Positions 16,813-36,789 of a DNA stretch of 64,000 nt are shown piece by piece. Positions within the stretch are counted from its first letter, which is position 1, and the number at the start of each line of letters is the position of its first letter. Location of the stretch: IMG/VR virus record IMGVR_UViG_3300045988_167906; one strand, given 5' to 3'. Below the pieces are notes generated by a model, which ran no database searches, was not told the origin of the DNA, and worked only from the letters and a program-made list of their open reading frames with translations. The translations under genes and the position numbers were made by a program. The DNA comes from a virus.

Positions 16813-18222
16813 ATGTATAATGTATATGTTTGTAAAGTAAAAAACATTAGACCTGCGGAGAATGCTAATCGTCTGAATGCCTGTGAAGTATTTGGTATTA
16901 CTACCATTGTTGATAAATCCGTGAATGAAAATGACCTCTACGTCTATTTCCCCACGGATGGTCAAATTAGTGAAGAGTTTGGTAAGGCAAATGACCTCTT
17001 CCGCCGCAAGGATGAGAATGGTAATCCGGCGGGCGGTTTCATTGACCCTGTGAAGCGTAATATTGGTGCAATTCGTCTTCGCGGTAATAAGTCCGAAGGT
17101 CTTATCCTTCCACTTACTTGCCTTACACCTTTTGGTGACATCAGTAATCTGGCCGAAGGTGATATTGTATCTACCTTCAATGGTCATGTAATCGCCGAGA
17201 AGTATGTGCCGATGCATAAGCCCAGAGTTTCAGAGTCTACTGCACGCGGCGAACACAACCATAAGTCTGCAAAGAAATGCCGCATTAAGTATCCATTCTT
17301 CGCAGAACATATTGATACTCCCCAGCTTCGTTTTAATATGGATATGTTTAAGCCGGGCGACATTATCTGCTTGACCGAGAAGGTCCATGGTACCAGTTCT
17401 CGAAACGCATATCAGACTGCAATTGTTGGCGAAAACGGTTTCTTCCTTACCAAGCTTATTGCACATAGCAACTGGCTGCCGAAGAAGTGGCGTATGTCCG
17501 CACAGTCTCACCTTACCCCTAAAACTGAAATGCGTTATCTGATTGGTACTCGCCGCACTGTCCTTACTAACAATAGCACCGGCGGCTTTTATGACAATGA
17601 TGACTTCCGTAAGGCTTGGGGCGAGCGTTTCAAGGGTAAGCTTCTGCCTAATGAGGAATGCTTCGGTGAAATTGCAGGCTTCTACAAAGATAATTATGGC
17701 GGTGCAGTTCCTATCATGTCTCGTGGAGATAATACTAAAACAAAAGATAAGCAATTTATTAAGCAGTATGGTAAGACTACCACTTTCTCTTATGGATGTA
17801 CTGAAACTGGTTATTACACTTATGGTGATGGTACTCATGAAGAAAGACCGCTTAACCGCTATTTTGTTTACCGTATGACTTATACTACTCCTGAAGGTGT
17901 AGTAATTGAATATCCTTGGGACCTTGTTAAGCAGCGTGCAGAACAGATGGGTTTTGAAACTGTGCCTGAACTGGAACGTTTCATCTACACCACTGAAGAG
18001 GATTTCCTCGCACGGATTGCCAAGTATGAGGATATTCCTTCTACGATTGATTCTTCTCATGTAATTGAAGGTGTAGTTATTCGCAAGATGAATGGTACAC
18101 GTTTCGACGTTGCAAAAGATAAATCTTATAATTTTAAGGTACTTGAGAATCTAATTAAGGTTGATGCCGAAGTGCCGGACATGGAAGAAATTGAAGAAGA
18201 AATGACTCTGGAGGATAATTAA
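16813..18222 (+). CDS. ATP-dependent RNA ligase (Rnl2-like nucleotidyltransferase)
   Basis: Motif I LTEKVHGTS (KxHG) as in T4 Rnl2 EKIHGTN, and a large C-terminal domain. No in-frame TAG. Confidence 0.6.
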   Translation: MYNVYVCKVKNIRPAENANRLNACEVFGITTIVDKSVNENDLYVYFPTDGQISEEFGKANDLFRRKDENGNPAGGFIDPVKRNIGAIRLRGNKSEGLILPLTCLTPFGDISNLAEGDIVSTFNGHVIAEKYVPMHKPRVSESTARGEHNHKSAKKCRIKYPFFAEHIDTPQLRFNMDMFKPGDIICLTEKVHGTSSRNAYQTAIVGENGFFLTKLIAHSNWLPKKWRMSAQSHLTPKTEMRYLIGTRRTVLTNNSTGGFYDNDDFRKAWGERFKGKLLPNEECFGEIAGFYKDNYGGAVPIMSRGDNTKTKDKQFIKQYGKTTTFSYGCTETGYYTYGDGTHEERPLNRYFVYRMTYTTPEGVVIEYPWDLVKQRAEQMGFETVPELERFIYTTEEDFLARIAKYEDIPSTIDSSHVIEGVVIRKMNGTRFDVAKDKSYNFKVLENLIKVDAEVPDMEEIEEEMTLEDN

Positions 18223-18445
18223 TGATTATTGGAATGATTTGCGTCTTAATTGGTGCAATTGTAGGAATTGTATTAGCGAGGGCTACTGATTAATGGGACT
18301 ATTTTTCTTAACCATTTTTATTTGTCTTATCTTTTATGCTCTTGGCAGTTTATATAATGATTAAAATACTTATTTTTGGTTTTATAATCATTGCATTCGT
18401 AATGTATTTATTTTGTAAAACAAACGATTTATAAGGAGAATTAAT

Positions 18446-18748
18446 ATGAGAAGTAGAAGTGGTAGTGTCGCAGTAATTCTTGTTGTAATTATTCTTGTAC
18501 TTGGCCTTTTGGTTCTTACTTTCAGTGGTGCGAATTTCCAACGTACCATCAAGAGTTGGAGAAGTAATTACACGGGCGGCCTTTATCGTATTGTGTCTGT
18601 CTATGATTACAATGGTAATCTCTTGCGGGAATATGGTCCGGCAATGATTGACATTAGCGAGTCAGAAAATGAAACATTCTTTGATTATAATGGTAATCGT
18701 ATTGTAATTCATAACGCTATTGTAATCGTTGAAGAAGTAAATAAATAA
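18446..18748 (+). CDS. membrane-anchored hypothetical protein
   Basis: N-terminal TM helix. Confidence 0.45.
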   Translation: MRSRSGSVAVILVVIILVLGLLVLTFSGANFQRTIKSWRSNYTGGLYRIVSVYDYNGNLLREYGPAMIDISESENETFFDYNGNRIVIHNAIVIVEEVNK

Positions 18749-18835
18749 TCAAAGAGCCAGAGCAAATCTGGCTCTTTTATTTTTATAAAAAAATTTGTTA
18801 AAATATATATATAAAAATGAGGGAGAAAATAAATT

Positions 18836-19168
18836 ATGAAGTATGTTGCTTATGATTATTTTGATAATTTCTATCCTGGCATTCTTGGTATTTGCAATAC
18901 CGAAGCTGATGTGCAGGAACTGATTCTTGCCGCCGCCGAAGAAGAAGCATATAGGGCATTCCTTGATGATTATTATTATGATGAAACTGGATTTACAGTA
19001 GAACCTGGTGAAAACCCTATGGAAGTTTATCTCAATGATAAAATTCTTGACTGGAAAGAGTATAATAAATTTAGATTTCCATTTGATGATAAAAATATTT
19101 CTTTCTATGGTTGGACTCTTCTTATGGCTAGTGAATATTATAACTATTCTATCGGAGAGGAGTATTAA
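18836..19168 (+). CDS. tandem paralog 1 of 3 (MKY... acidic small proteins)
   Basis: Shares N-terminal MKY(x)...C(N/D)T(E/R)AD(x)EELILA with the next two genes. Confidence 0.5.
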   Translation: MKYVAYDYFDNFYPGILGICNTEADVQELILAAAEEEAYRAFLDDYYYDETGFTVEPGENPMEVYLNDKILDWKEYNKFRFPFDDKNISFYGWTLLMASEYYNYSIGEEY

Positions 19169-19444
19169 ATGAAATATTTAATTTCTGAAATTGATGATGA
19201 TGCTTGTTGCGAAATCCCTCGATATATTTGCAACACTCGGGCAGACGCCGAAGAACTTATTCTTGCAATAACTGAAGAAGATGTATATAATCAAGCAATG
19301 TACGATGGCGTAGATGATTTCTTTACTTATAGTTTTGCTTTCAGAAGATCCCGCCATCCAGAAGTGAAATGTAAAACTCATTATGGCACAGCTCTTTGGT
19401 TTATGAGTGGTCGATTTATTATTGAAGAATTAGGAGAATATTAA
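19169..19444 (+). CDS. tandem paralog 2 of 3
   Basis: As for 18836-19168. Confidence 0.5.
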   Translation: MKYLISEIDDDACCEIPRYICNTRADAEELILAITEEDVYNQAMYDGVDDFFTYSFAFRRSRHPEVKCKTHYGTALWFMSGRFIIEELGEY

Positions 19445-19720
19445 ATGAAATATATTGTTTGGAATAGCTGTAATGATGATTTAATTTGCTGTGATAACCG
19501 AATTTCTGCCGAAGAACTTGTTCTATCTATCGCCGAGGAAGAAGCATTTATCGAATATAATTATGGCATTAACAAACTTGATGATGCCGATACTCTTGAA
19601 GAATATACAGATACATTACGTGATTGGTGGAAGAAATATCAATGTAGTAATGAATGCATTGCTCTTTTCTTTGGCGGAATTAATTACTACATTAGAGCTA
19701 TTCCAAGTTTGGAGGATTAA
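19445..19720 (+). CDS. tandem paralog 3 of 3
   Basis: As for 18836-19168. Confidence 0.5.
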   Translation: MKYIVWNSCNDDLICCDNRISAEELVLSIAEEEAFIEYNYGINKLDDADTLEEYTDTLRDWWKKYQCSNECIALFFGGINYYIRAIPSLED

Positions 19721-19722
19721 AT

Positions 19723-19953
19723 ATGTATTTTAGATATAAAGTAAACTGGAATTTTGATGACAAGTCAAAAGATGAGACAGGACTTGTGTATTCTGATAAT
19801 GACGTTGATGAAGGATATACTGATGCTATGGAAAAGATCTGTCAGTATTTTGATAGCATCAATAAAGTAGAGCTTGAAGCATTCGCTCCTGATGATTGTC
19901 TTGAAGTAAGTGCCGAAGCACTTGATGCAATTCAGGAGAATGTGCTGTGGTAA
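19723..19953 (+). CDS. hypothetical protein (76 aa)
   Basis: RBS GGAGGATTAAATATG. Confidence 0.45.
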   Translation: MYFRYKVNWNFDDKSKDETGLVYSDNDVDEGYTDAMEKICQYFDSINKVELEAFAPDDCLEVSAEALDAIQENVLW

Positions 19954-20162
19954 ATTTGCGTCGATGCGGCAGATGCGGCTATCGTGTTCAAGGCCAATGC
20001 CGCATCGTCTCTGGCTTACGTGTCGATGATGAAGACCCAGGCTGCAAATTCTTCTGCTCTAACCCGCCGCATTGTACCAGGTGCGGCACTATCCTTCAAA
20101 ATAATCAAGTCCTTATTGTGGATGACAAAATCTATTGTAAAAATTGTGGGAGTAATATATGA
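19947..20162 (+). CDS. zinc-ribbon protein (two CxxC pairs at each end)
   Basis: CGRCGYRV...CTRCG...CKNCG. Confidence 0.5.
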   Translation: MVNLRRCGRCGYRVQGQCRIVSGLRVDDEDPGCKFFCSNPPHCTRCGTILQNNQVLIVDDKIYCKNCGSNI

Positions 20163-20365
20163 TTTATAAAATTAAAGCTGAAGGATATCCATATCCTATT
20201 CATGTTAATACTGCTGTTATTCCTATTATGTATATCATTAAAATTGAAAAAAATTTGTACGAATTAACAATGGTTGAATCTTTATCAAAAAGGTATAAAC
20301 TTACTATTAATGCTCTCGAAAACCGCGATTTTATTGAATTTATGGGAGGAAAAGTAGAAAAATGA
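20159..20365 (+). CDS. hypothetical protein (68 aa)
   Basis: ATGA overlap. Confidence 0.4.
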   Translation: MIYKIKAEGYPYPIHVNTAVIPIMYIIKIEKNLYELTMVESLSKRYKLTINALENRDFIEFMGGKVEK

Positions 20366-20859
20366 TTTTTTTCTTGATCGCCATAGCTATCACTATTGTT
20401 TATAGTATTCAGCAGTATATTAAATATTATAATTTTTCAAAAATTTGGAAGTGGTTTAAGTCCGAATTTCTATGGGCAGCCGTTTGTACTTGTATGGTCG
20501 CTATCGCTATCAGTGGACTATTAGCTGTTATTTATTGTGATAGTCCCAGTGGCAAAGAACATTCAGTAACTAAAATAGAAAATTATCATGAACTTAAGCC
20601 TATGTCAGAAGGTACTTATATCCAATGGGGTAGCGACAATTCCGCAATTGTTCTTTTAGATAATGGTTATTATCAGACATATAAGCTTGATAATAGTTCA
20701 GTATTTATTAAGACCTGTGCCGATGGCGAAGTACCTAATGTAAAAACAATTAATTATACAAAATATAATGATTATCGTCAATGGCTCTGTCTCTGGAATG
20801 CCCTTAGTAATGAAACATTTATTACACTTCCTCCTGGAGTTTATAAACCTATTACATAA
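20362..20859 (+). CDS. membrane protein (2 N-terminal TM helices)
   Basis: Hydrophobic N-terminus. Confidence 0.5.
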   Translation: MIFFLIAIAITIVYSIQQYIKYYNFSKIWKWFKSEFLWAAVCTCMVAIAISGLLAVIYCDSPSGKEHSVTKIENYHELKPMSEGTYIQWGSDNSAIVLLDNGYYQTYKLDNSSVFIKTCADGEVPNVKTINYTKYNDYRQWLCLWNALSNETFITLPPGVYKPIT

Positions 20860-20952
20860 GCCGATTGGTTAACGCCATTCGGCTTCTTTTATTTTTATAA
20901 AAAAATATTGTAAAATATATATAAAGAAATGAGAAATAAAAAAATTAACAAG

Positions 20953-21318
20953 GAGGCATATATCATGAGTGTTGAATATGAAGCGTTTGTCGGTCGTGGT
21001 TTTATGTTTGGTGAAGACGGAACTCCTACTTTCAGAGAATATTGCGAACGAGTAAAGATTGACCCGAATGAAGCATTTGAAATTCTTCAAGAAGATGACC
21101 TTGTAATTTCTGATTGCTATGGCTATGATTGGCTGGATCATATCTTTTTTGGTTATCGTCTTTTTAGTATTGACCTTGATTCATCATTCAATTATAATCG
21201 TCTTAACCATTTTGAAATTGATGTAAATAAAGAACATGAAATGGAAAAAAAGTTTAATGAAGTATTTGGTGAATATCCGCCAATTTTTAGTAGCTATATT
21301 GTAGAGAGGGCATATTAA
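20953..21318 (+). CDS. hypothetical protein
   Basis: Late promoter 20889-20925, RBS AAGGAGG. Confidence 0.5.
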   Translation, partial: EAYIMSVEYEAFVGRGFMFGEDGTPTFREYCERVKIDPNEAFEILQEDDLVISDCYGYDWLDHIFFGYRLFSIDLDSSFNYNRLNHFEIDVNKEHEMEKKFNEVFGEYPPIFSSYIVERAY

Positions 21319-21650
21319 TGGATGGCTTAATTATTATTAATCATTTGCCGCTTGATGAAGGCAATTATGATTTTATGGATACATATAATTTTATTGCCTT
21401 AACGCCTCAGCTTACTTGGCAAGAAACATTCCAAGAGATTGAAGAAGTGCGGCGGACGGTTGTGGAGGATGTAGCAGATGACCTTATCTATTATATCCAG
21501 AAGCAAATCTATGAAACAAGTCTTGAAGCGGCAGAACAGTGGTTCCTATACGAAACGTCTTGCCTGCTTGGGCAAGGTAAATTGGCATTTATGTCTTATG
21601 TAGACAAATTTATTGAATTTATTTATGTGGAGGGTGTGAAACAATGGTAA
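21318..21650 (+). CDS. hypothetical protein (110 aa)
   Basis: Stop/start overlap. Confidence 0.45.
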   Translation: MDGLIIINHLPLDEGNYDFMDTYNFIALTPQLTWQETFQEIEEVRRTVVEDVADDLIYYIQKQIYETSLEAAEQWFLYETSCLLGQGKLAFMSYVDKFIEFIYVEGVKQW

Positions 21651-21979
21651 TAACTGACGAGGATAAATTGATTATTGAAGGGGTAATTGGTCCCAAAGAT
21701 AGTGCGAGTAGAGTTATTTATAAGGCATTGAAATCTATTCCTGATAGTGCTATGATGGTACAGGCAAATCTGACTAATACTCATAGTATTTGGATTGTAC
21801 GTGAAGGTATGGTACAAACAATTAAAATTGCACTTGATAGATGCAGCTGTCATAAGGATATTGATTATACTGTTATTGATAATCCGCCTTATTACGATGC
21901 AATTTTTGTTGTAATTAAAGACCCAGTAGATTATTCTAAGGGTATGTATCAGTATAGAATTAAGGAGTGGAAAAAGTAA
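21644..21979 (+). CDS. hypothetical protein (111 aa)
   Basis: Overlap. Confidence 0.45.
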   Translation: MVITDEDKLIIEGVIGPKDSASRVIYKALKSIPDSAMMVQANLTNTHSIWIVREGMVQTIKIALDRCSCHKDIDYTVIDNPPYYDAIFVVIKDPVDYSKGMYQYRIKEWKK

Positions 21980-22782: not shown

Positions 22783-22973
22783 ATTAATGTTGGCAATTAT
22801 CCATTCTACAATAGACCCGCTATGGTTTCTCATTCCGGGTCTAATTCTATTAGGAGTAGCTATTTATTTACGTTTACATTTAGAAGATTAAATTTTATAT
22901 AGAACTATTTTCTAAATATATTATACAAAAAAATTTTAATTATGTCAAACCATTTTGGGCAAAGGAGGACAAT

Positions 22974-23414: not shown

Positions 23415-23460
23415 AAAATAATATTATATAATATTTATATAATAAAGGAGGAAATATTAT

Positions 23461-25584
23461 ATGAGTTATTTATTTACCAGTGAAAGCGTTTTTGCCGGTC
23501 ATCCTGATAAGGTTTGTGATTAGGTAAGTGATGCTATTCTGGATTATGTCCTCCAGCTTGATCCTGATGCACGAGTAGCTTGTGAATGTACTATTAGCCC
23601 AGGCATCTTCCATATTATGGGAGAGATCACAGCTAAAACAGAACAATCTATTCCTTATCAGGAAATTGCAAGAGAGACTTTAAGATTTATTGGTTATGAC
23701 AATGATGAAGCAGGATTTAACTGCGACACTTGTTCATATATTATTAATGTAGTAAATCAATCCCCTGACATCGCTGCGGGTGTTGATAGGGATGGTGCTG
23801 GCGACCAAGGCATGATGTTTGGTTATGCAACCAATGAAACAGAAAATTATATGCCTATCGCTCAGCAACTTGCTAACAATATCTCGGTCATTATGTTTAG
23901 TAAGTATAAAAATGATTTGCTACCTTGGGCATTACCTGACGGCAAATGCCAGATAACTGTCCAATACGATGATGATGGCAACTTTGAAGGGGTAGATACA
24001 ATTGTCGTATCGGCCCAACACAAAGACAAGTATAGTATTAAGGAAATAACGCCCGATATTACGAACATTTGTAATATTGCCCTTCAAGGTTATGCCATTA
24101 AAAAAGATTGTAAATTTTATATTAACCCAACAGGTAAGTTTGTGAAGGGCGGTCCCCAGGCTGATACTGGATTAACAGGACGTAAAATCGTTGTAGATAC
24201 ATATGGTGGCTACGCTCCGCATGGTGGTGGATGCGTAAATGGAGATACAGAATTTTTAACCCTTAATGGGTGGAAAAAAATCTCTGAATTTTCTTCAGAT
24301 GATAAAGTAGCTCAATGGGATGATGGCAAGATTTCATTTGTTAATGGTGAATTTGTAAGGCTACCTAAAACTAAAATGTATCATATTGCTACTAATAAAT
24401 CATTGGATATGATATTATCTGATAATCATAATGTTCTCTATAAAACATCTAAAGGAAATTATCAGAAGAAAACTTGTCAAGAAATTTTAGACTATTATTA
24501 TAAAAATAATGGGTTTAGAAGTATTCAAATCCCTATTTATTTTACTTATGATTTTAAGGATAATCCTGGCCTTGATTTAACTGATGATGAAATTAGACTT
24601 CAAGTAGCATTTTGTGCAGATGGTACTATTCTAAAAGAGAATTCAGGATGGACTGGAAGAATTAGAGTTAAAAAGAAATATAAAAAAGAGGCATTAAGAA
24701 AACTATTCGCTTCAACAGGACTTGATTATAAGGAAACCCCAGATAATGATTGTAGTATTTTTTGGTATAAGCCTTCCTTCGTAAATAAAAAAATGAATGA
24801 ATGTTTATCTAAATGCAATTTGCATCAAGCTCAAATAATTGCTGATGAAGTAATTAAATGGGATGGAGATAGAGATTGTGTTTTTAGAACCACACATAAA
24901 GATGAAGCCGATTTTATTCAATTTATTTTTATGGCAGTTTATGGCACATCTTCTCATTTTTCTATTGATGATAGAATAGGTGAAACATTCAGTGAAAATT
25001 ATACTCGTAGAAGTATTTGTTATGAAGTAAGACAAGGTAAATATAAATATTCTACTCCATTCAGAACTTCAGGTTCTTCAATTGCCAATCTAACTATTGA
25101 AGATTATGAAGATAATGATCCTTGGATGTATTGTATTAATGTACCTTCTCATAATCTTGTATTAAGATATAATAATCGAGTTTTTATTACAGGCAATTGT
25201 TTTAGCGGCAAAGACCCCAGTAAGGTAGACCGTAGTGGTGCATATATGGCACGCTATGTAGCTAAAAATCTTGTAGCTTCTGGCGTTTGTGATAAATGTA
25301 TGATTCAAGTTGCTTATATCATTGGACAGACAGAACCTGCATCTATTGATATTAATTGTTTTGGCACAGAAAAGAAACCTATTGCTGAAATTCTTGATGC
25401 AGTTAATCAGACATTTGATTTTGCACCGCGTAGTATTATTCATAAATTTGATTTAAAGCATACTCGCTATTTACCCTATGCTTGTTTTGGTCATTTTGGT
25501 CGTATTGAATGCAATAGTCCTTGGGAACAACTTGATAAAGTAGACGAATTAAAAACAATTTTTGATTTTGAAAAGGAGAACTAA
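23461..25584 (+). CDS. metK: S-adenosylmethionine synthetase (MetK) interrupted by a 322-aa intein; TAG codon at the conserved Gln
   Basis: MSYLFTSESVFAGHPDKVCD(TAG)VSDAILD aligns with E. coli MetK [34 protein letters not shown] and (after the intein) CFSGKDPSKVDRSGAYMARYVAKN are the other MetK signature motifs. Confidence 0.85.
24232..25197 (+). mobile_element. intein inserted in the MetK HGGG|AFSGKD P-loop (starts Cys, ends Asn, +1 Cys)
   Basis: MetK homology is continuous across the deletion of 24232-25197. The insert begins CVNGDTEFLTLNGW and ends ...RVFITGN followed by CFSGKD. Confidence 0.7.
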
Positions 25585-25907: not shown

Positions 25908-25909
25908 TT

Positions 25910-26320
25910 ATGTTATTGTATTTGTTGGCTATTGTTGTTTGCGTAGTTTGTTTTATCATTGGAAAAATTTTAAGTGATAATTTTAGTGATTGGAGTGTTC
26001 TTCCATTCACAGTAGGTTTTATGACGGCTCTTGTAGTATTTATTAGCACTATTGTTTTTATCAGTCAAGGAGTCAGAGAACCTATTGACCGTGCAAATAT
26101 TGAAGCCGAACGTGATGTTATTGTTTATCAGGTAGAACATCATGATAGTTTTCTTGAGACTTCAAGAGTTGGTGTAAATGAATTGTATTATACTCAAGTA
26201 AAAGAGTTTAATGAGAAAGTACGTTTTCACCAGTTTTATAGGAGTAATCCTTGGACAAGCTGGTATGAGCAGCCATTTTGGTCAGAAATTGAATTGATTG
26301 ATTATACAGAGGAGTCTTGA
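25910..26320 (+). CDS. membrane protein
   Basis: Two TM helices. Confidence 0.5.
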   Translation: MLLYLLAIVVCVVCFIIGKILSDNFSDWSVLPFTVGFMTALVVFISTIVFISQGVREPIDRANIEAERDVIVYQVEHHDSFLETSRVGVNELYYTQVKEFNEKVRFHQFYRSNPWTSWYEQPFWSEIELIDYTEES

Positions 26321-26413
26321 TAAGAGACTCCTCTTTTATTTTTATAAAAAAATATTATAAAATATATATATAAAGAAATGAGAGATATAAAGAATTTTAA
26401 AGGAGACGATACT

Positions 26414-27550: not shown

Positions 27551-27963
27551 GCAAGGTAATGTCTGGTCCAGGCAATCCTTTTGTATTTAATCAGATGGAT
27601 TTTTTAATGGGTCGTATTAAGAAAGAAGACACATTAAATAAATACCATATGCTTCTTAAATCAGGCAGAGTTATTCTTGAAGACTATTGGTGTTGGCATG
27701 GTCATGAATGGTATAAAGCATTAGTTAAATGTCTTAATGATTTTTATATTGTAATTATATCAGAAATAGATGTAATTAGTATAGAAAGAATAGAAAATCC
27801 AACAGTAGATTCTATCTATATGGAATATATATTGGCAAGCAGAATGAGAGGAGATGAAGTTGATGGCGACTCTATATATGATGTGCGGCTTGAGTGCAAA
27901 TGGAAAGACTACATTCGCGAAATCCTTCGCAAAGATGAATCACATCCGGTATGTAAACCCTGA
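27535..27963 (+). CDS. hypothetical protein
   Basis: Overlap. Confidence 0.4.
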   Translation: MEFDMSKVMSGPGNPFVFNQMDFLMGRIKKEDTLNKYHMLLKSGRVILEDYWCWHGHEWYKALVKCLNDFYIVIISEIDVISIERIENPTVDSIYMEYILASRMRGDEVDGDSIYDVRLECKWKDYIREILRKDESHPVCKP

Positions 27964-28399
27964 TGAATTGTATGCTGTCTTTAATGGTGATGAATGCAAC
28001 CGTAGTCATAAGTTCGAAGTTTGGCAGACATTGTATCAGATTGTACATTGTGCAGAACTGGACAATGCAGATATTATCATTGATACTAACTGTTTGACTC
28101 TTGGACAGAGAGAAGAAATCAGAAGCCGTTTCCCCCATTTCGATAACTATCAGCTTATGGTTATTATTGCTAGCGTAGAAAATTCAAAGGAATGGAACTC
28201 CCAGAGACATAGAGTAGTGCCGCAGCAGGAGCTTGAACGGCAGGCACGTATTGTAGACTGGCCTAATTTGACTGACCATTATAATGGTTGGAATAATATT
28301 AGATATTATTATAATGATGGCTCTCTGTTTACTAAATATCGTGAAATTTATGATGGTGAAGACCATGACTTGCGGCAGGAGAAGGAGGATAATAAGTAA
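27854..28399 (+). CDS. P-loop kinase (polynucleotide-kinase-like NTPase domain)
   Basis: Walker A GLSANGKTT, Walker-B-like IIIDTN. RBS GAGAGGAG. Confidence 0.5.
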   Translation: MKLMATLYMMCGLSANGKTTFAKSFAKMNHIRYVNPDELYAVFNGDECNRSHKFEVWQTLYQIVHCAELDNADIIIDTNCLTLGQREEIRSRFPHFDNYQLMVIIASVENSKEWNSQRHRVVPQQELERQARIVDWPNLTDHYNGWNNIRYYYNDGSLFTKYREIYDGEDHDLRQEKEDNK

Positions 28400-28998
28400 T
28401 GTTTTTAATTGTTTTAGGTATTTTTATTGTATTTGCTATTATCTGTTTTACAGTATTTAGTTATTTCAAAGACTGGGAAAATTATAAGGGTTTTAAAGAA
28501 GGAGCTATTAAATGGCATGAAAAAACTGTTGAGCTTACCTTCGATGAAGTAATGAAATACTCTGCTATTAAACCTGATAAATGGTGTGTTACTGGTAATA
28601 GCATTTCTTATAAGACTGGTAAGCGTACTCGTAATGGTGGCGAAAATAATTTTTATGTGTATTTTAGTTCTTATAAGGAATATCGTAAATTTATCCAATG
28701 GTGGGAAAATAAAAAGATTAAAGCAAAACAAGAAGACGAATTGCTTAAAGGTCTTGAATTCTGCGATCTTATGAAAAAAGATTGTCAAGCCCTTAAAGAA
28801 GAAAGCCAAGAGGCAATTCGTAAGGCGGCGATTAATAGTGCCAAGCTTATTAAGCAAACGGTTGAAAATGATGCTGAACTTAAACATATTTATAAGTGTG
28901 TAGTTAATGAAGATGGCACTGTTGAACTTGTTAAATATGATTATACTGCAACTGCACAATTGAGTAAACAGCCGGAAGGTTCTATTACTTGTTCATAA
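28399..28998 (+). CDS. hypothetical membrane-anchored protein
   Basis: N-terminal TM. Confidence 0.45.
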   Translation: MFLIVLGIFIVFAIICFTVFSYFKDWENYKGFKEGAIKWHEKTVELTFDEVMKYSAIKPDKWCVTGNSISYKTGKRTRNGGENNFYVYFSSYKEYRKFIQWWENKKIKAKQEDELLKGLEFCDLMKKDCQALKEESQEAIRKAAINSAKLIKQTVENDAELKHIYKCVVNEDGTVELVKYDYTATAQLSKQPEGSITCS

Positions 28999-30860: not shown

Positions 30861-31006
30861 GGTTAGTATAGATATTTCTAAATATTTGCCAGTTTAGAAA
30901 ATCACTTCCTTTACGAAATAGACCTCGGTTATCCGGGGTCTATTTTATTTTTATAAAAAAATATAATAAAATATATATATAAATTAAAAGGAAAAGGTGA
31001 ATTAAA

Positions 31007-32671
31007 ATGACAGATTTGAGGACTCTTATTCCAGAAGAAGAAAAGAACCTGCTGCACGATTATATTAAAGAGTACCTTCATTCTGATAATTACTGTACAG
31101 TAGATGAAATTAATCATCTTCTGCGGTTTTGGGCTGTCGAAAAGCCCGACCTGTATAAGCTGTTGGGCAACAACCTGATGGTTAAAGACCATATTGCTTA
31201 TCAGGCATCTGAAGAGGATTTGATGGATAAGTTCAGTGAAATGTATGAAGAAATTTATAATAATCCTGAATTAGCAAACGTTAAAAAATTCATTGACTCT
31301 TACGAGCAGATTACTAATATTTATTATTCTTGGATGGATGCCACTCTTGATAAGGATGAACGTGTTAATTGTTGTAGCATGATTGAGCATTGCCTTGATA
31401 GTGAATCTCTCGTAGCCAATAAAAATGTGTATATGTTTGATTGGGGTCGCAAATCTGTTACTATTCGCCGTGGTCCGCATGCAGATACTTCAAAGCCGCT
31501 TGAACTGAAGAGTGATATGAAGTTGATGCGAATGATGGCTAAAATTGTCGATTGGTTTGAGCTGGACAAAGAAGCATTTGAACAGTTCCGTATTCTTCAT
31601 TCGCGTGTTTTGAATGATCGTATGATTAATGCTAATATTACATTGTCTATTCATCCGCTTGACTATCTTACTATGAGTGACAATGCTTGTGATTGGGAGA
31701 GCTGTATGAACTGGTATCAGGGTGGCGATTATCGTCTTGGTACTGTTGAAATGATGAACTCCCCTGTTATCCTTGAAGCATATGTTGAGTCTGAGCATCC
31801 TTATTGTCCTATTGATCGTGATAATAGAACTTGGAGCAATAAGCGTTGGCGGTGTCTTTATATTGTTAATAAGGATATTATCACTGAAATCAAACAGTAT
31901 CCTTATAATAACATTTATCTGCGTGACTATGTGCTGAATAAGATTAAGCAGTTGGCTGAACAGAATATGGGCTGGCATTATGATGATAAAATGTATGAGG
32001 TTTGGCAGAACCAGAATAATGATACTGATTTTGGTCAGGTTTATATCCGCATGAGGACCGGAGCTATGTATAATGATTATTATGATAATCATTATGCTTA
32101 TATCAATCCAGAAGTCAAAGAAGTAGAAGTTTGTTATTCTGGTGTAGCTGAATGTATGTGTTGCGGCAAAGGCTACGAAGCTGACCCGAGTGGAAATGTA
32201 GATGCATTTGTAGAATGTGATAAAGTCGTATGTGCAACCTGCGAAGGCAAAGTCCAGTGCGATGATTGCGGTGCTTGGATTGATAGTGAAGATGCTTGGT
32301 TTTGTAGTGAAGATGGTGCAACTTATTGTAGTTGGTGTGCAGAGGGCCGCACCCAGGTTTGTAGCTGCTGCGGAGAAACTAAATGGCTTGATTATGATTT
32401 CAAGAAGCAGGCTCTTCCATATATGTTTGAAGTAAAAACTCCTAATGGTAAGCATCGTCGAGATATTGGAAATCCGATTGATGTCTGTGATGATTGCTAT
32501 GAAGATTATTGTTTCGATGATGTACCAAAGGAACCAGACTTGTGGGGAGATTTTCAATATATTGATGTTGACAAGGTAGATAAGAAGGTATGGGAGCCAT
32601 TTCTGTCCCTTGAAAGAATTGCTGATGCCAAGGTGCGGCTAAAGGCAACTTACCCTGATGATTATGTTTAG
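31007..32671 (+). CDS. paralog family C member 1 (HPLDYLTMSDN...WESCMNW...YR.GT.EMMNSP core plus C-terminal multi-CxxC zinc-ribbon array)
   Basis: Paralogous to 38101-39744 and 42339-43664. Ends at a TAG, so the true end may be 32725. Confidence 0.55.
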   Translation: MTDLRTLIPEEEKNLLHDYIKEYLHSDNYCTVDEINHLLRFWAVEKPDLYKLLGNNLMVKDHIAYQASEEDLMDKFSEMYEEIYNNPELANVKKFIDSYEQITNIYYSWMDATLDKDERVNCCSMIEHCLDSESLVANKNVYMFDWGRKSVTIRRGPHADTSKPLELKSDMKLMRMMAKIVDWFELDKEAFEQFRILHSRVLNDRMINANITLSIHPLDYLTMSDNACDWESCMNWYQGGDYRLGTVEMMNSPVILEAYVESEHPYCPIDRDNRTWSNKRWRCLYIVNKDIITEIKQYPYNNIYLRDYVLNKIKQLAEQNMGWHYDDKMYEVWQNQNNDTDFGQVYIRMRTGAMYNDYYDNHYAYINPEVKEVEVCYSGVAECMCCGKGYEADPSGNVDAFVECDKVVCATCEGKVQCDDCGAWIDSEDAWFCSEDGATYCSWCAEGRTQVCSCCGETKWLDYDFKKQALPYMFEVKTPNGKHRRDIGNPIDVCDDCYEDYCFDDVPKEPDLWGDFQYIDVDKVDKKVWEPFLSLERIADAKVRLKATYPDDYV

Positions 32672-32750
32672 TTTAAATTCTTGCCAAAATTGAATACTCG
32701 AAAATTTATAAAAAATTTGATATAATATATATAGAAAGGATGGGAGAGAT

Positions 32751-33194
32751 ATGGAACGCATTTATAAATTGACTTATGGTTCTGACTATGAAGAACAGAA
32801 ACTTGGTTATCTTACAGAAGATAAGCTGAATGATTATCTTGAAGAGTTGTTTCATTCAACTCTGATGAAAGATAGTATTCATAGTCATTTTGAAACTCTC
32901 CGAGCAGAAAAGATTAGATATGCAACCAAGCGTTATAATGCTATTCAGGATATGAATAAATATCTTCCCATCCTTCAGGAAGGCAAAGCAAGTCCTGAAT
33001 ATAGGAATGCCAAGAAAGAATATAAGAAATATGAACGCATTATCATTGATTGTAAATGGCAAATGAAGAAAGCGGATATGCTGCTTGAGGAATGCAAGAA
33101 ATGGACGGCAGTTGATTGGCTTCATTGGGCTGATTATAATTGGGAGCCGATTGAACTTAATGTAATCAGACAAGTTAATGAGGAGGATTGCTAA
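32751..33194 (+). CDS. hypothetical protein, tandem paralog of the next gene
   Basis: Shared YK(L/V)...YLTEDKL..YL...NWEPI pattern. Confidence 0.45.
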   Translation: MERIYKLTYGSDYEEQKLGYLTEDKLNDYLEELFHSTLMKDSIHSHFETLRAEKIRYATKRYNAIQDMNKYLPILQEGKASPEYRNAKKEYKKYERIIIDCKWQMKKADMLLEECKKWTAVDWLHWADYNWEPIELNVIRQVNEEDC

Positions 33195-33652
33195 TGACAA
33201 TTTATAAGGTAAGCCGCGGCAATGCTTGGGATGAATATGACATTGCTTATCTTACAGAAGATAAGTTGGAAGAATATCTCAATGCTGTTTACAATAGCTC
33301 TTGGATGGAACAGCATAAGCATAATCATCTTGATGGTATCAATGAGACAGAGAAAGATTACAAAGAAAGTTTTGATAGATATATTCAAAGCTGTAATTTC
33401 TATCTTCATGCTCCAAAACATGGACAGTTAAGTAAAGAAGCTTCTAAAAATAATTTCAATCAGTGTGAACGAAAAATTATAGAAACACGCAATAGACTTC
33501 AGCAAATCCAAGAGATTAAAGAAGAAGTAGTCAATTGGAGCAAGGAAGATTGGCTGCATCACGCACATTATAATTGGGAACCTATCCGAATTAATGATAT
33601 GGAAAATCTTGAAAGACCTGATGATGACAGAACAAGTGAGGATTGGATGTAA
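33188..33652 (+). CDS. hypothetical protein, tandem paralog of the previous gene
   Basis: As for 32751-33194. Confidence 0.45.
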   Translation: MLMTIYKVSRGNAWDEYDIAYLTEDKLEEYLNAVYNSSWMEQHKHNHLDGINETEKDYKESFDRYIQSCNFYLHAPKHGQLSKEASKNNFNQCERKIIETRNRLQQIQEIKEEVVNWSKEDWLHHAHYNWEPIRINDMENLERPDDDRTSEDWM

Positions 33653-33885
33653 TGGAAAAGAAAAAGATTGTAATTAAAGTTTTGAGTGAGTGCGGTACTC
33701 TGACCGCAAAACAGATTTCTGCATTTGCTAAACGTAAGTATGATTTTGACATTACACCACAGGGTGCCTCGGGTGTAATGCGTGGTCTCATTGGTCAAGG
33801 CTTGGCTGGTAGTTCTAAGGATGAAAATAACCATACAAGATATTGGCTTAATACTTGCTCTTGGAAGGATATGTCAGATGTTTAA
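33643..33885 (+). CDS. hypothetical protein
   Basis: Overlap. Confidence 0.4.
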   Translation: MDVMEKKKIVIKVLSECGTLTAKQISAFAKRKYDFDITPQGASGVMRGLIGQGLAGSSKDENNHTRYWLNTCSWKDMSDV

Positions 33886-34108
33886 AAAATGTATTGTAAC
33901 TATTCTATTAGTTGTAACTGTTGGATTACTTCTTATTTCGTCTTGGAAATATACTTCTAATAAAATTCGTATTTTTCCTAATACCTTTGGTTCTCAGGGT
34001 GTTGAAATTCAGAAACGTGATGGTTATAAAATTAATACAATGCATCCTTATGAAATGATTGAAACAGAAGATGGATATGATTTAATTATTCATTTTATTA
34101 AGGAGTAA
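33878..34108 (+). CDS. membrane-anchored small protein
   Basis: N-terminal TM. Confidence 0.4.
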   Translation: MFKKCIVTILLVVTVGLLLISSWKYTSNKIRIFPNTFGSQGVEIQKRDGYKINTMHPYEMIETEDGYDLIIHFIKE

Positions 34109-34109
34109 T

Positions 34110-34280
34110 ATGGCTGAATGTAAATATTTTAGTTATGAAGATACGACTCCTTGGCACGGTGATGTGTTTGATCATCCTGATTATAAGTATTATTGTTTAA
34201 AGAATGAAAAGAAAAAAGAAATTTTTTCTTGGACTTGTTCAAAATGCCCTTATTATAAGGAGAAGAAAAATGATTCATAA
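34110..34280 (+). CDS. small Cys-rich protein (56 aa)
   Basis: RBS AGGAG. Confidence 0.35.
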   Translation: MAECKYFSYEDTTPWHGDVFDHPDYKYYCLKNEKKKEIFSWTCSKCPYYKEKKNDS

Positions 34281-34542
34281 AATGATTGCATGCTCAGAAG
34301 AATGTCTCCGCTTGGCCTGTTGTAATGTTTGTAAATATGTTATTCTAGATTATTTTTTTGAGAAAGATAAAGATGGAAATATGCAGATTGTAAATGGTGG
34401 ACCATATGGTTGTTCTCTCCATAAAGATAGTGACCATCAAATGATTGCTGAAAGTTATGGCTATTGTCCAGATTTCCATTGCAGAAATGCTACTGAGGAA
34501 AATGAATACAAATGGGTTGTAAAGGAGACTATTGATGACTGA
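34270..34542 (+). CDS. Cys-rich hypothetical protein
   Basis: In frame with listed ORF 34204. Confidence 0.4.
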   Translation: MIHKMIACSEECLRLACCNVCKYVILDYFFEKDKDGNMQIVNGGPYGCSLHKDSDHQMIAESYGYCPDFHCRNATEENEYKWVVKETIDD

Positions 34543-34783
34543 ATATAAATGTAAAGTATATCTGGTTCCGCCGCAGATAGGTTGGCATGGATTTAGTCTA
34601 GTTGCTGCCCTTGATGCTGAATATGCTAATCAAATTATTCGGAAAGCCGCTGGAGAGAGTAGATATTATTGGGGCTATTCACACGTGCGAGAGTATGATG
34701 CTATTGATAATGTTTATTCTGATACTATTGGATTTGTATATGAAGGGATTTTTGAAGACGATGAATATAGCAGAATTGATTAA
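34532..34783 (+). CDS. hypothetical protein
   Basis: Overlap. Confidence 0.4.
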   Translation: MMTEYKCKVYLVPPQIGWHGFSLVAALDAEYANQIIRKAAGESRYYWGYSHVREYDAIDNVYSDTIGFVYEGIFEDDEYSRID

Positions 34784-35000
34784 ACTGGTTGAAAAAACTG
34801 ATTGGAATAAATATCAGAAAGAAGATATTCTTGATTCGGTTAAAGAGCATCCTGAACTTCTGGATATGACACCTGTTCAGCTTCGTACCAGAGCCAGAGA
34901 TTTGGATTGGGATGCTGATGGATATATGAATAAGGTTAATAGCCTTGAAAATGAAGCGGCTTTGACCAGAGATTTAATTGAAATTATGTATGGAGAGTGA
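34761..35000 (+). CDS. hypothetical protein
   Basis: ATG 34761. Confidence 0.4.
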   Translation: MNIAELIKLVEKTDWNKYQKEDILDSVKEHPELLDMTPVQLRTRARDLDWDADGYMNKVNSLENEAALTRDLIEIMYGE

Positions 35001-35005
35001 TAATT

Positions 35006-35812
35006 ATGAATTACCATTCAGATAAATGGGTTATGGATAAGGTAGAAACTCATTTAGAAGCAGCTAATATTAGAAGCGAAAATTGGGTTAGTTTAATGGC
35101 TTATGGTAGCCAGAATTATGGTCTTGATACTCAAAATTCTGATGTAGATACCCGCCTTATTGTTCTTCCTTCATTTGAAGATATTGTATTGAATAAGAAG
35201 CCGGTATCTTATACCAAGATTCTTTCTAATGATGAACACATTGATTTTAAAGATATTCGTTTGTTCATTGATTGTTTGAAGAAACAGAATATGGCTTATC
35301 TTGAATGTATCTTCACGCCTTATAAAATGGCATCAAGTACGTATTGGAATGAGTGGCAGGCACTGCTTAATGAGCGTGAAGCTATTGCACGCTATAATCC
35401 TTACAAGGCAGTTAAGACAATGAAGGGTATTGCTATGGAAAAATACCATGCAATGGAACATAGATATCCTACTAAGGCCCATCTGATTGATACATATGGT
35501 TATGATAGCAAGCAGCTTATGCATCTGCTTCGTATTGAAAGATACCTTGGACGTTATATTGATGGTGTTAAATATGCAGATTGTCTTCAAGCCCCAATGG
35601 GTGATTATCTTCTTGATGTAAAAAATTATCATTATAATCTTGAAACTGCACGAATTGTAGCCAATACTGCTATTAGTAATATTACAAGAGTAGCTGATGA
35701 TTATTGTTCTAAGACCAAGGATGAAGGTAATGAAGAGCTTGAAGATTTTATGAATAAGATTGTTTATCTTATTATGAAAAAAAGAATTGTAAAGGAAATG
35801 TTAAATGTCTGA
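35006..35812 (+). CDS. nucleotidyltransferase (Pol-beta superfamily minimal NTase fold)
   Basis: YGSQNYGLDTQNSDVDTRL matches the G[GS]-x9-13-D-x-D motif. Confidence 0.5.
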   Translation: MNYHSDKWVMDKVETHLEAANIRSENWVSLMAYGSQNYGLDTQNSDVDTRLIVLPSFEDIVLNKKPVSYTKILSNDEHIDFKDIRLFIDCLKKQNMAYLECIFTPYKMASSTYWNEWQALLNEREAIARYNPYKAVKTMKGIAMEKYHAMEHRYPTKAHLIDTYGYDSKQLMHLLRIERYLGRYIDGVKYADCLQAPMGDYLLDVKNYHYNLETARIVANTAISNITRVADDYCSKTKDEGNEELEDFMNKIVYLIMKKRIVKEMLNV

Positions 35813-35996
35813 AGATAATATGACTATTGAAATTGATAGTCGAGATATTGAAGAAATTGAAAATAATTTTGATGATCTTGGTAAATGGCTGACTGAACAT
35901 TTTACCAGATTTGGTGCTCAAGCTGTTGTGCTTAGTGCAGTTATAGAAAAAGTAGAAGAATTAAAGGAAGAGTTGGCTAAAGAAGAAAATACGTAA
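35805..35996 (+). CDS. hypothetical acidic protein
   Basis: Overlap. Confidence 0.4.
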   Translation: MSEDNMTIEIDSRDIEEIENNFDDLGKWLTEHFTRFGAQAVVLSAVIEKVEELKEELAKEENT

Positions 35997-36009
35997 GGAG
36001 GGAACTTCA

Positions 36010-36789
36010 ATGTTCAAGGACTGGGTTGTCCGAGGCGATTGTCATGGCGATTTTACATGGCTTAACGCAAGAATGTTTAGAATTTTAAATCCAAAAGACT
36101 ACGCAATTATTATCCTTGGTGACGTAGGTTTCAATAGTGGCAATACATTCCGGGATGATATGAAGAAAAAGTATGCAAGCCAGTTTGGATATTCTATCTA
36201 TTGCGTGCGTGGTAACCATGAGGTACGTCCTGAGAATGTTGAAGGTATGGAACGCATTTGGGATAGTAATGTTCAAGCTAACGTATGGTATGAGCCGGCC
36301 TACCCTTTGATTAAATATTTTGATAATTATGGGGTTTATTATCTTAAAACAGAAGATAGAGAATATCGCACGTTGGTCATCTGCGGGGCTTACTCTGTTG
36401 ATAAATATTACCGTCTTAAAAATAATCTGCTCTGGTGGGAAGATGAGCAGTTGACTGATGCAGAGAAGTCAGAAGTAGAGAGACTTATTCGGCAGACTAA
36501 CAAGCATTTTGACCTTGTGCTCTCGCACACTTGCCCTTATTCTCTTAGGCCAGTTGATAAATTTCTTTCAGTAGTAGACCAATCTACTGTAGATACATCT
36601 ATGGAAGAGTGGCTTGAAACTATTAAGAATATGATTACATATGATGTATGGCTTAGTGGGCATTATCATGTTGACCGATTTATCAATAAGCATAATATTC
36701 TCTATTTTAATTGCATTGACTCATTAGAGGATATTTTTCTCTGGCATGATAAAATGGATGATACTGTAAATAACATTGACCGCATCTAA
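36010..36789 (+). CDS. calcineurin-like metallophosphoesterase (lambda-phosphatase family)
   Basis: GDCHGD, GDVGFN and RGNHE motifs. Confidence 0.65.
   Translation: MFKDWVVRGDCHGDFTWLNARMFRILNPKDYAIIILGDVGFNSGNTFRDDMKKKYASQFGYSIYCVRGNHEVRPENVEGMERIWDSNVQANVWYEPAYPLIKYFDNYGVYYLKTEDREYRTLVICGAYSVDKYYRLKNNLLWWEDEQLTDAEKSEVERLIRQTNKHFDLVLSHTCPYSLRPVDKFLSVVDQSTVDTSMEEWLETIKNMITYDVWLSGHYHVDRFINKHNILYFNCIDSLEDIFLWHDKMDDTVNNIDRI

Follow-up and report, generated by a model that had tools for sequence, protein, structure and literature searches.

Do four genes that lie far apart in a phage genome encode the successive steps of a single RNA repair pathway? This question is raised by a 64,000-nucleotide stretch of viral DNA (IMG/VR record IMGVR_UViG_3300045988_167906; the whole stretch is referred to here as the window), in which an earlier sequence-only reading had picked out an RNA ligase, a P-loop kinase, a Pol-beta nucleotidyltransferase and a calcineurin-like phosphoesterase and had proposed that they act together, as a means of counter-defence, on tRNAs cut by host anticodon nucleases. 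Our analysis indicates that the four genes probably encode an RNA end-healing-and-sealing pathway, here split up, of a type that had been predicted before in large phages. The corresponding open reading frames (ORFs) were found where that reading had placed them, all on the + strand (ligase, 16813-18222; kinase, 27854-28399; nucleotidyltransferase, 35006-35812; phosphoesterase, 36010-36789), with their catalytic motifs intact and the motif columns invariant across diverse homologues. Its four superfamily guesses were also upheld, as each protein scored above the curated Pfam threshold of its family (27 bits for RNA_ligase and for AAA_33, 23 bits for RlaP and 21.5 bits for Metallophos). In-frame TAG codons are missing from all four genes, each of which terminates in TAA or TGA.

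The window belongs to a phage genome of some 189 kb, retrieved repeatedly from metagenome assemblies: identical ligase proteins are encoded on contigs of 188-189 kb, and a relative at 91% identity is present in IMG/VR. Nearly all genes are carried on the + strand, and the GC content is about 35%. No close match at the DNA level was found among deposited phage genomes. Among deposited phages, the closest homologues of the ligase, with approximately 41% identity, belong to the large Bacillus siphoviruses PBC2, Thrax1/3, Kirov and vB_BcoS-136.

The gene at 16813-18222 encodes an ATP-dependent RNA ligase of 469 residues, in which an OB fold (approximately residues 1-130) is followed by a C-terminal nucleotidyltransferase domain. 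Motif I (K190-V-H-G, followed by T), motif III (GEIAG, residues 285-289), motif IV (EGVVxR, residues 419-424, here EGVVIR) and motif V (K435-D-K437) were all recognized, and K190-V-H-G-T, GEIAG, EGVVxR and KxK were invariant among 18 homologues; Lys190 is the predicted site of adenylylation. The protein matched PF09414 (RNA_ligase) at 30.9 bits over residues 185-434, the OB domain of PHA02142 at 21 bits over residues 6-101, PHROG 968 'RNA ligase' at 1.9e-53, and the NCBIfam model TIGR02306 (DRB0094, Deinococcus-type) over residues 8-203 with an E value of 5e-12. It had initially been described as Rnl2-like. This was correct insofar as it is an RNA ligase with KxHG as motif I (the T4 Rnl2 motif being KxHGxN), but its domain order is that of Rnl5 and it lacks the Rnl2 C-terminal domain. 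In Rnl1-4 and Rnl6 the nucleotidyltransferase domain is N-terminal and followed by a clade-specific C-terminal domain, while Rnl5 alone begins with an OB fold and places the nucleotidyltransferase domain at its C-terminus, and DNA ligases carry their OB domain C-terminally (PMC7261155). The window ligase was assigned the Rnl5 order because its OB fold is N-terminal and its nucleotidyltransferase domain C-terminal. Moreover, motif V lies at residues 435-437 of 469 and the remainder is an acidic tail, so that there is no room for an Rnl2 C-domain.

Comparisons with solved structures gave a composite picture. When a profile of the 18 homologues was searched against the PDB, the sole match was the OB domain of NgrRnl, the Naegleria RNA ligase (E 0.005), and the top 13 Foldseek matches of the ligase model were likewise NgrRnl (about 1e-6), with T4 Rnl2 at noise level. 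A profile of the nucleotidyltransferase domain alone had T4 Rnl2 as its sole, borderline match (E 0.011). No sequence similarity was detectable between the catalytic domains of NgrRnl and the window ligase, and KVHG as motif I is unlike the KxDG (K170-x-D172) of NgrRnl. By domain order and motifs, the ligase is thus OB-first and Rnl5-like, with a catalytic core that leans towards Rnl2. It resembles the Rnl5 enzymes DraRnl and NgrRnl in having an N-terminal OB domain and then a nucleotidyltransferase domain, and phage members of Rnl5, whose role has been described as uncharted, are known. It differs from them in length (469 versus about 340 residues, owing to insertions in the catalytic domain) and in having KxHG rather than KxDG. 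The concern, raised with the original proposal, that the protein might be a DNA ligase homologue was not borne out: it had no match to the Pfam DNA ligases (DNA_ligase_A_M) and its OB domain is N-terminal. The genuine DNA ligase of phage Nate, by comparison, matched DNA_ligase_A_M at 5.5e-22 in the same kind of search.

The surroundings of the ligase gene are unusual in their own right. The gene stands out by its composition, with a GC of 0.42 where the ORF mean is 0.348 (standard deviation 0.028). At approximately 12000-16500 there is an island of low GC content and negative GC skew that contains genes on the minus strand (a GIY-YIG endonuclease, a DUF6291 protein and an RHH-type protein); it varies between the near-identical contigs L006 and L007 and ends just 5' of the ligase gene. 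Also just 5' of the ligase, at 16355-16630, is a gene for a type II chorismate mutase (Pfam CM_2, 3.9e-13), which is an unusual metabolic gene for a phage.

The kinase gene (27854-28399) encodes a standalone polynucleotide 5'-kinase of 181 residues that matched AAA_33 at 1.2e-12 (48.8 bits, cut-off 27) and the polynucleotide kinase family PHROG 505 at 5.6e-8. Translation probably starts at Met4 (position 27863), and the metagenome gene call is for a protein of 178 residues. The P-loop is G12-LSAN-G17-K18-T (GLSANGKT), Asp37 is a candidate general base, and G12, G17, K18, D37, D77, R86, N115, R118 and P123 are invariant or nearly so in the family. A profile of 20 family members had T4 polynucleotide kinase (1LY1) as its best match in the PDB (E 1.7e-19), with further matches to Pnkp1 (2.9e-17), seryl-tRNA(Sec) kinase, the kinase domain of Clostridium thermocellum Pnkp (1.8e-16) and mammalian PNKP. 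The subgroup that contains the window kinase, when aligned alone to T4 Pnk with hhalign, gave a probability of 95.9% over 37 columns only. The kinase is also homologous to the kinase half of kinase-HD fusions that adjoin ligases in phages LC76P1 and Nate. By these profile comparisons, it belongs to the T4-Pnkp clade of polynucleotide kinases. Zeta toxins, which had been named as the family whose recognition would undo the assignment, did not appear: there was no Pfam match of the window kinase to Zeta_toxin at E <= 0.1, and none of the matches of the family profile in the PDB was a zeta toxin. The protein consists of the kinase domain alone, with no fused HAD, Metallophos or HD phosphatase. 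The ORF at 28399-28998, which is translationally coupled to the kinase, was considered as a detached HD phosphatase and rejected, as it is unlike the HD half of the LC76P1 fusion and has no Pfam match.

The nucleotidyltransferase (35006-35812, 268 residues, in an ORF open from 34997) could be placed more precisely than as a Pol-beta nucleotidyltransferase. It matched PF10127 (RlaP) at 31.3 bits (cut-off 23), as did 14 of the 21 members of its family, and the metagenome gene call starts at 35006, as had been assumed from the sequence. Its motifs are G34-S35 (GSQNYG), S45-D46-V-D48 and D83, and the three aspartates D46, D48 and D83 are invariant; RlaP proteins have three strictly conserved aspartates (PMC12776372). 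The RlaP family profile matched no solved structure in the PDB. In a 2025 preprint, a Pseudomonas RlaP was found to add one or two nucleoside monophosphates (NMPs) to RNA 3'-OH ends, with a preference for damaged RNAs; among cellular macromolecules it used only RNA, and the authors proposed that RlaP counters ribotoxins that remove nucleotides (PMC12776372). By analogy, the window RlaP is predicted to add one or two NMPs to an RNA 3'-OH end. The nucleotidyltransferase had been listed as a component of Pnkp/Rnl-type repair. The family assignment stands and is now narrowed to RlaP, but a nucleotide-restoring step is foreign to Pnkp/Rnl systems.

RlaP is followed in the window by a small ORF of 63 codons (35805-35996, + strand) that overlaps the RlaP stop codon and separates it from the phosphoesterase gene. 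This ORF is lineage-specific: it has no Pfam family, and its sole homologue was found in L014, a collinear relative. The RlaP and phosphoesterase genes of most other phages abut directly.

The phosphoesterase (36010-36789, 259 residues) has a calcineurin fold and matched Metallophos at 2.6e-13 (51.3 bits, cut-off 21.5). Its motifs are GDCHG (residues 9-13), GD38, GNHE (68-71), H173 and GH218xH220, and all ligands of the binuclear metal center (D10, H12, D38, N69, H70, H173, H218 and H220) are invariant. The structural model was of high confidence (predicted local distance difference test, pLDDT, 91.6). Its closest structures were CWF19L1 (score 15.5), aq_1956 (14.6) and the RNA lariat-debranching enzyme Dbr1 (14.2), followed by purple acid phosphatase, PptH, MPPED2, GpdQ and SbcD/Mre11, with lambda phosphatase (6.8) and PP5 (6.4) far more distant; the Foldseek ranking was concordant. 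This ranking indicates that the protein is neither a protein Ser/Thr phosphatase (PPP, NinI-like) nor a lambda-like Pnkp domain. The family and the GDxHG and GNHE motifs noticed from the sequence are therefore confirmed, and an action as a Ser/Thr protein phosphatase, which had been a concern, is not supported, but the protein is not of the lambda-phosphatase-like type used by Pnkp. In the model, it is structurally closest to phosphodiesterases of the Dbr1/Mre11 type. Its substrate cannot be read from the fold. The phosphoesterase is predicted to heal RNA ends that carry a 2',3'-cyclic phosphate or a 3'-phosphate.

If the four proteins act together, their genes might be expected to travel together, and in other phages they do. 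In Lysinibacillus phage LC76P1, consecutive genes encode a ligase of the same type (OB plus RNA_ligase), RlaP and a kinase-HD fusion, an order that is repeated in L098, and in Bacillus phage Nate a kinase-HD fusion comes after an Rnl1-type ligase. An unrelated 182-kb contig (L009) carries within 9 kb genes for cREC, YAcAr, RlaP, a small ORF, Metallophos, the OB-ligase, Band_7, NADAR and the kinase; its phosphoesterase is 47% identical to that of the window, and its RlaP, encoded directly 5' of the Metallophos gene, 45% identical. Our sample comprised about 180 loci in total. Among 80 viral loci centered on the phosphoesterase, RlaP was present in 48, the ligase in 50, the kinase in 33 and cREC in 35, with the end of RlaP usually no more than 10 bp from the start of the phosphoesterase. 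After dereplication at 70% identity, 23 clusters with full flanks were left, of which 22 had at least one partner (RlaP in 16, 13 of them with RlaP directly 5'; ligase in 17; kinase in 15). Most phosphoesterase homologues found in a scan of bacterial genomes and metagenome-assembled genomes (MAGs), on the other hand, stand alone. This is explained by a neighbor-joining tree of 160 phosphoesterases, which splits them into two monophyletic clades, A (median 237 residues, prophage-type) and B (270 residues, including the window protein). In loci with full flanks, a partner (RlaP, ligase, kinase or cREC within 8-10 kb) was found for 50 of 53 clade B members and for 0 of 33 clade A members. The original suggestion that the four proteins act together is thus supported by conserved gene linkage across many other phages.

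Two further patterns were observed in these loci. In 28 loci, a ligase of the window's own subfamily (36-43% identity) is encoded at a distance of 2-4 kb from the RlaP-phosphoesterase pair, and in other loci the same position is occupied by a second ligase subfamily that has the same architecture and cannot be aligned to the first. The use of two unalignable subfamilies in one position argues for functional coupling beyond mere inheritance of gene order. In addition, all five kinase-HD loci lacked the phosphoesterase, and all 35 loci with the kinase and the phosphoesterase lacked HD; in a sample selected on these very genes, this fits the phosphoesterase and HD being alternative 3'-end healers. 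No other ORF that neighbors the four genes in the window was seen to accompany the cassette in distant phages.

Members of the sister clade A (about 237 residues; loci L103-L182 and L003) are frequent in gut Clostridia and Erysipelotrichaceae, in genomes as well as MAGs, and occur in a temperate Oscillospirales phage too. RNA-repair partners were always absent from these loci, and the function of this clade may differ from that of the window protein.

The compact arrangement has been largely broken up in the window. Only RlaP, the 63-codon ORF and the phosphoesterase are still together, with reading frames that overlap or nearly abut; the kinase gene lies about 8 kb and the ligase gene about 17-18 kb 5' of this pair. 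RlaP and the ligase, adjacent or a few kb apart in relatives, are thus separated by about 17-18 kb here, and this scattered layout is kept in relatives that are 87-98% identical. Terminator-like hairpins on the + strand were found 3' of the ligase unit (18751-18777, 11 bp and a T-run), between the ligase and the kinase (26308-26334), and between the kinase and the RlaP-phosphoesterase pair (30915-30946, 14 bp); judging from these, the kinase, the ligase and the pair appear to be in separate transcription units. The collinear relative L014 has a true cREC gene (Pfam 4.7e-18) just 5' of RlaP and no kinase at the matching position. No match to cREC was obtained in the window with family hidden Markov models (HMMs), nor were HD, NADAR, Band_7 or YAcAr found when all six frames were searched by HMM and tblastn. 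The ORF that occupies the position of the L014 cREC (34204-34542) was considered as a divergent cREC and dismissed, having no Pfam match and no match to a 34-sequence cREC HMM. Likewise, the HslV-like peptidase at 37497-37997 was rejected as a cassette member, since it has no relationship to the protease encoded close to the repair genes in phage Nate.

From the families and their linkage, we infer the enzymatic steps, their substrate and their biological purpose as follows. An RNA, most plausibly a tRNA, would be broken to leave a 2',3'-cyclic phosphate (or 3'-phosphate) and a 5'-OH. The metallophosphoesterase (36010-36789) would then strip the blocking phosphate to give a 3'-OH, and the T4-Pnkp-like kinase (27854-28399) would phosphorylate the 5'-OH. 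Where a nucleotide had been lost, RlaP (35006-35812) would add one or two nucleotides to the 3'-OH, and the ligase (16813-18222), adenylylated on Lys190, would finally seal the 3'-OH and 5'-phosphate ends. The genes for these steps form one cassette in many related phages; here they are scattered, and cREC is absent from the window. The pathway could serve counter-defence, directed at tRNA nucleases of the host, or the processing of tRNAs cut by the phage's own ribozymes, or the two together.

Several observations weigh against this pathway. The TIGR02306 score of the ligase (45.3 bits) is far under the cut-off of 151, and the ligase model has an overall pLDDT of 55.6 and is confident for residues 1-130 only, so that the catalytic domain cannot be placed by its fold. 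Characterised Rnl5 ligases seal nicks in duplexes and require an RNA 3'-OH strand (PMC7261155), and it is not obvious that a cut anticodon loop presents this duplex-nick geometry. The kinase subgroup of the window lacks the Arg that most members of the family have after the catalytic Asp (S-R-D-x-x-R is replaced by N-P-D-E-L-Y). As for the phosphoesterase, the structures nearest to its model are phosphodiesterases and nucleases (Dbr1, Mre11) and not known RNA 3'-phosphatases, and because clade A thrives alone in prophages, the fold itself implies no RNA substrate. Given the distances between the genes and the three strong terminator-like hairpins that separate them, co-regulation is unproven. 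Finally, the loci used to assess linkage were chosen via the phosphoesterase or the ligase, and many of them are mutually related.

What the pathway might act on is suggested by the tRNA genes of the window. The large tRNA array noticed earlier was confirmed, with 14 tRNAs called by ARAGORN at 49.5-55.4 kb and two added by Rfam. Among the high-confidence array tRNAs, an encoded CCA is missing only in tRNA-Glu(UUC) (52379-52451) and tRNA-Ala(UGC) (53343-53418, with a G3-U70 identity pair), both on the + strand and ending at A73; it is present in the other 12. These two tRNAs are candidate endogenous substrates. A candidate theta ribozyme (of the minimal type that resembles hepatitis delta virus (HDV) ribozymes) on the + strand begins directly after A73 of each: one at 52452-52507, with G1 right after the tRNA-Glu (RF02682, 19.4 bits), and one at 53419-53486, right after the tRNA-Ala (RF02682, 24.5 bits). 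Both matches are full-length, yet under the gathering score of 44. The putative folds show nested P1, P2, P3 and P1.1, a catalytic C in J4/2 and a cut no more than 1 nt from the tRNA 3' end, with imperfect P1.1 pairing in the tRNA-Glu copy. Our own structural descriptor picked out these two sites in the window, both at offset 0 from the tRNA ends; it found 11 sites in 2.8 Mb of sequence and 0 in five shuffles. Other theta-like matches were found in the cassette-type loci L172 (where the match adjoins a tRNA-Pro), L089, L032 and L053, and in none of the clade A loci. When a ribozyme of the HDV type cuts, the upstream product ends in a 2',3'-cyclic phosphate and the downstream one begins with a 5'-OH. 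By this end chemistry, both CCA-less tRNAs should need the 3'-end healing predicted for the phosphoesterase.

Ribozymes of this kind have a precedent. Theta ribozymes are often found at tRNA 3' ends in recoded gut phages, and an RNA ligase of the DRB0094 family is reportedly encoded in 54.5% of the genomes of theta-ribozyme phages, a 140-fold enrichment; Kienbeck et al. (2024, PMC10879173) left the cyclic-phosphate end undiscussed and proposed an aminoacylation-like role for the ligase. The window shares with those phages the ribozyme descriptor, the cleavage site at the tRNA 3' end, the CCA-less tRNAs, the recoding and a DRB0094-type ligase. In particular, the tRNA-Ala copy fits the published descriptor ACC-N-CC-ACGN-GGT-P1'-GG-GTAATG-CTAA, in the format of the examples in the supplement of PMC10879173. 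The window differs from those phages in that its ribozymes flank tRNA-Glu and tRNA-Ala and not a suppressor tRNA. At short range, theta ribozymes and cassette genes are seldom found together: a cassette gene, mostly Band_7, was present in 9 of 75 short stretches with a theta ribozyme, and 3 of about 73 contigs with canonical theta ribozymes were among the roughly 92 sampled cassette contigs. Any link between the two must therefore be at the level of the genome.

Recoding in this phage is suggested by the S-adenosylmethionine (SAM) synthetase gene metK (23461-25584), which has an in-frame TAG at 23521-23523, within the GHPDKxxDQxSDA motif (GHPDK..D-Q-.SDA). This TAG stands at a position where MetK proteins carry Gln. 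The same TAG is present in a near-identical contig, and metagenome gene calls read through TAG in several genes of the window. Further in-frame TAG codons in otherwise intact genes were found at 32669, 37126, 43539 and 61617, and at eight sites within 44342-45688. The Gln position of the metK TAG and the read-through gene calls point to TAG-to-Gln recoding (code 15), and the phage thus appears to use TAG as Gln. As a consequence, several genes of the window appear shortened or divided in ORF lists that assume the standard code. Such recoding is known in gut phages (PMC9523058) and in phage phAss-1 (PMC10607447), whose nucleotidyltransferase matched that of the window. The tRNA array may also serve the recoding. 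No tRNA with a CUA anticodon was found in the window.

With the ribozymes in view, the breaks might be self-inflicted: the toolkit, or at least its RlaP-phosphoesterase module, would then mainly finish the phage's own theta-cut tRNAs, the phosphoesterase removing the cyclic phosphate at A73 that blocks CCA addition, and RlaP and/or the host CCA-adding enzyme extending the end. The two HDV-like elements begin exactly where this would require, after the only two tRNAs without CCA, the descriptor found nothing in shuffled sequence, its other matches fell in cassette-type and not in clade A loci, and HDV-type cleavage yields the ends in question; the 140-fold ligase enrichment (PMC10879173) and the three contigs shared between the theta and cassette sets point the same way. 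However, a ligase and a 5'-kinase are not needed for 3'-end maturation and would both be left unexplained, and RlaP adds one or two nucleotides in vitro, compared with the three of CCA. The ribozyme matches fall well below the gathering score and one has an imperfect P1.1, cassette genes are seldom near theta ribozymes, and Bacillus and Lysinibacillus phages, in which theta ribozymes are not known, carry the same cassette. The ligase enrichment, for its part, may reflect shared lineage or large genome size. On balance, we regard self-processing as the main role of the toolkit as unlikely. A broader version, in which the 'repair' genes of TAG-recoded gut phages are part of the phage's own tRNA-production line, is also doubtful, though slightly less so; the pair would heal and extend the theta-released 3' ends, and the ligase and kinase would handle other products or odd tRNA genes such as that at 47434-47579, a combination that we would likewise put forward only tentatively. 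Were it true, it would provide the widespread Rnl5 and RlaP families with a concrete physiological substrate and explain why DRB0094-type ligases are so enriched in theta-ribozyme phages.

The other alternatives do away either with the pathway or with RNA. The four genes could be functionally unrelated and merely share a large genome, with the kinase acting on nucleotides or small molecules, the phosphoesterase on signalling nucleotides or as a nuclease or protein phosphatase, the nucleotidyltransferase on another target, and the ligase alone. The spacing of 8-18 kb with terminator-like hairpins in between would be as expected, AAA_33 and Metallophos are broad superfamilies, the clade A phosphoesterases function without any partner, and the kinase slot is variable, L014 having no kinase there despite being collinear. 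This is nevertheless improbable in view of a linkage that is strong and clade-specific (50/53 versus 0/33), the direct adjacency of RlaP and the phosphoesterase in 13 of 23 dereplicated clusters, a kinase family profile that points to polynucleotide kinases in particular, and kinases that are fused to HD and adjoin ligases in other phages. Somewhat less probable still, and in our estimation very improbable, is that the set repairs DNA by mending 3'-phosphate/5'-OH nicks in the phage genome, at replication or after attack by host nucleases. T4 Pnkp and mammalian PNKP do act on DNA ends as well, the phosphoesterase resembles the Mre11/SbcD nucleases, and Deinococcus Rnl5 contributes to radiation resistance (PMC5397189). 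Rnl5 enzymes, however, need an RNA 3'-OH strand (PMC7261155), RlaP used only RNA among cellular macromolecules, and the ligase has neither the domain order of DNA ligases nor a match to a Pfam DNA ligase. RNA end healing and sealing thus remains the reading that we favor.

Systems of this type are not new. In Iyer et al. (2021, PMC7824862), where the work of Burroughs & Aravind (2016) is summarised, phage sets of a ligase, a polynucleotide kinase, a phosphoesterase and RlaP beside tRNA arrays are predicted to serve counter-defence, and calcineurin-like and HD phosphatases are treated there as rare alternatives to HAD phosphatases. Because such sets have already been described, the window is best seen as a new, dispersed member of a known system: it has the same four activities, predicted order of action and association with a tRNA array, and differs in that its genes are spread over 20 kb, it lacks cREC, its phosphoesterase belongs to a clade paired with RlaP, and it is TAG-recoded. 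In our sampling of about 180 loci, three features emerged of which we did not find a description, namely the clade-specific pairing of RlaP with the phosphoesterase, the Dbr1/Mre11-like nature of the latter, and its apparent alternation with HD. Bacteriophage T4 also heals and then seals, with a Pnkp whose kinase domain is homologous to the window kinase and with an RlaP homologue, NrdC.11. The T4 repair genes are likewise scattered in the T4 genome. In T4, however, the kinase is fused to a HAD 3'-phosphatase and the ligases are Rnl1 and Rnl2, whereas the window has a kinase on its own, a metallophosphoesterase as candidate 3' healer and an OB-first ligase. Bacterial Pnkp (C. thermocellum, Pnkp1) has a homologous kinase domain and a binuclear metallophosphoesterase, which is also what is proposed here for 3' healing, but it unites them with a ligase in one polypeptide; the window proteins are separate and have no Hen1 partner.

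Taken by itself, a repair set is what one would expect of a large phage rich in tRNAs. Should the pathway work in the proposed way, healing-and-sealing sets can be recognized even when scattered, with the compact cassettes of relatives as a guide. The analysis also singles out a clade of uncharacterised metallophosphoesterases as likely 3'-end healers that pair with RlaP and apparently alternate with the kinase-fused HD. Rnl5 ligases and RlaP are widespread, and no natural substrate is known for them; the window unites a complete toolkit with candidate ribozymes that must leave tRNA ends with cyclic phosphates, and thereby with defined candidate substrates encoded by the phage itself.

Several peculiarities of the tRNA region deserve mention. 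The tRNA at 47434-47579 (Rfam, 42.7 bits; encoded CCA; anticodon-loop context CU-UAU) has a 76-nt insert in its anticodon loop with a 7-bp closing helix and a T-loop-like GTTCAAATC; a group I intron would have to be far longer than this insert. This tRNA was not called by ARAGORN and is identical in the close relatives L011 and L091. The tRNA at 54509-54582 was picked up solely by Rfam (48.5 bits). It contains a G3-U70 pair, and its anticodon arm can be folded on paper with the 7-nt loop AUUUAAU; so folded, its anticodon UUA would read UAA and perhaps UAG, making it a possible suppressor tRNA. At 54590-54716, a T-arm and acceptor 3' strand are followed by an acceptor 5' strand and D-arm, with weak Rfam matches to YrlA and permuted tmRNA; a permuted tRNA was considered here and rejected, as ARAGORN called no tRNA on any rotation. 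Scattered between the tRNA genes, at 50218-50760 and 52680-54190 (positions 4754-6408 in L092), are genes for homing endonucleases of the GIY-YIG and HNH types.

Elsewhere in the window, the SAM synthetase gene contains a 322-residue intein (24232-25197) inserted at HGGG|AFSGKD; its first and last residues are Cys and Asn, and the residue after it is again Cys. The near-identical contig L007 has an uninterrupted 385-residue allele, indicating that the intein is polymorphic in the population. A group of paralogous proteins of 450-570 residues without a clear Pfam family is encoded among the genes at 31007-32725, 38101-39744, 42234-43664, 44342-45688 and 45657-46310, and paralogues are also found near the phosphoesterase in L014, L016 and L054. 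Beside them are a weakly matching radical-SAM protein with eight in-frame TAGs and a protein with a weak match to the 'tSAM_targ_Cxxx' repeat, and from these matches the whole may be a peptide-modification cluster. Lastly, two adjacent proteins with an Mtd_N (major tropism determinant) domain are encoded at 56147-57760, as they are in L092, and a third lies further 3' in the parent contig; by their domain content they may be receptor-binding proteins of the kind that is diversified by retroelements.

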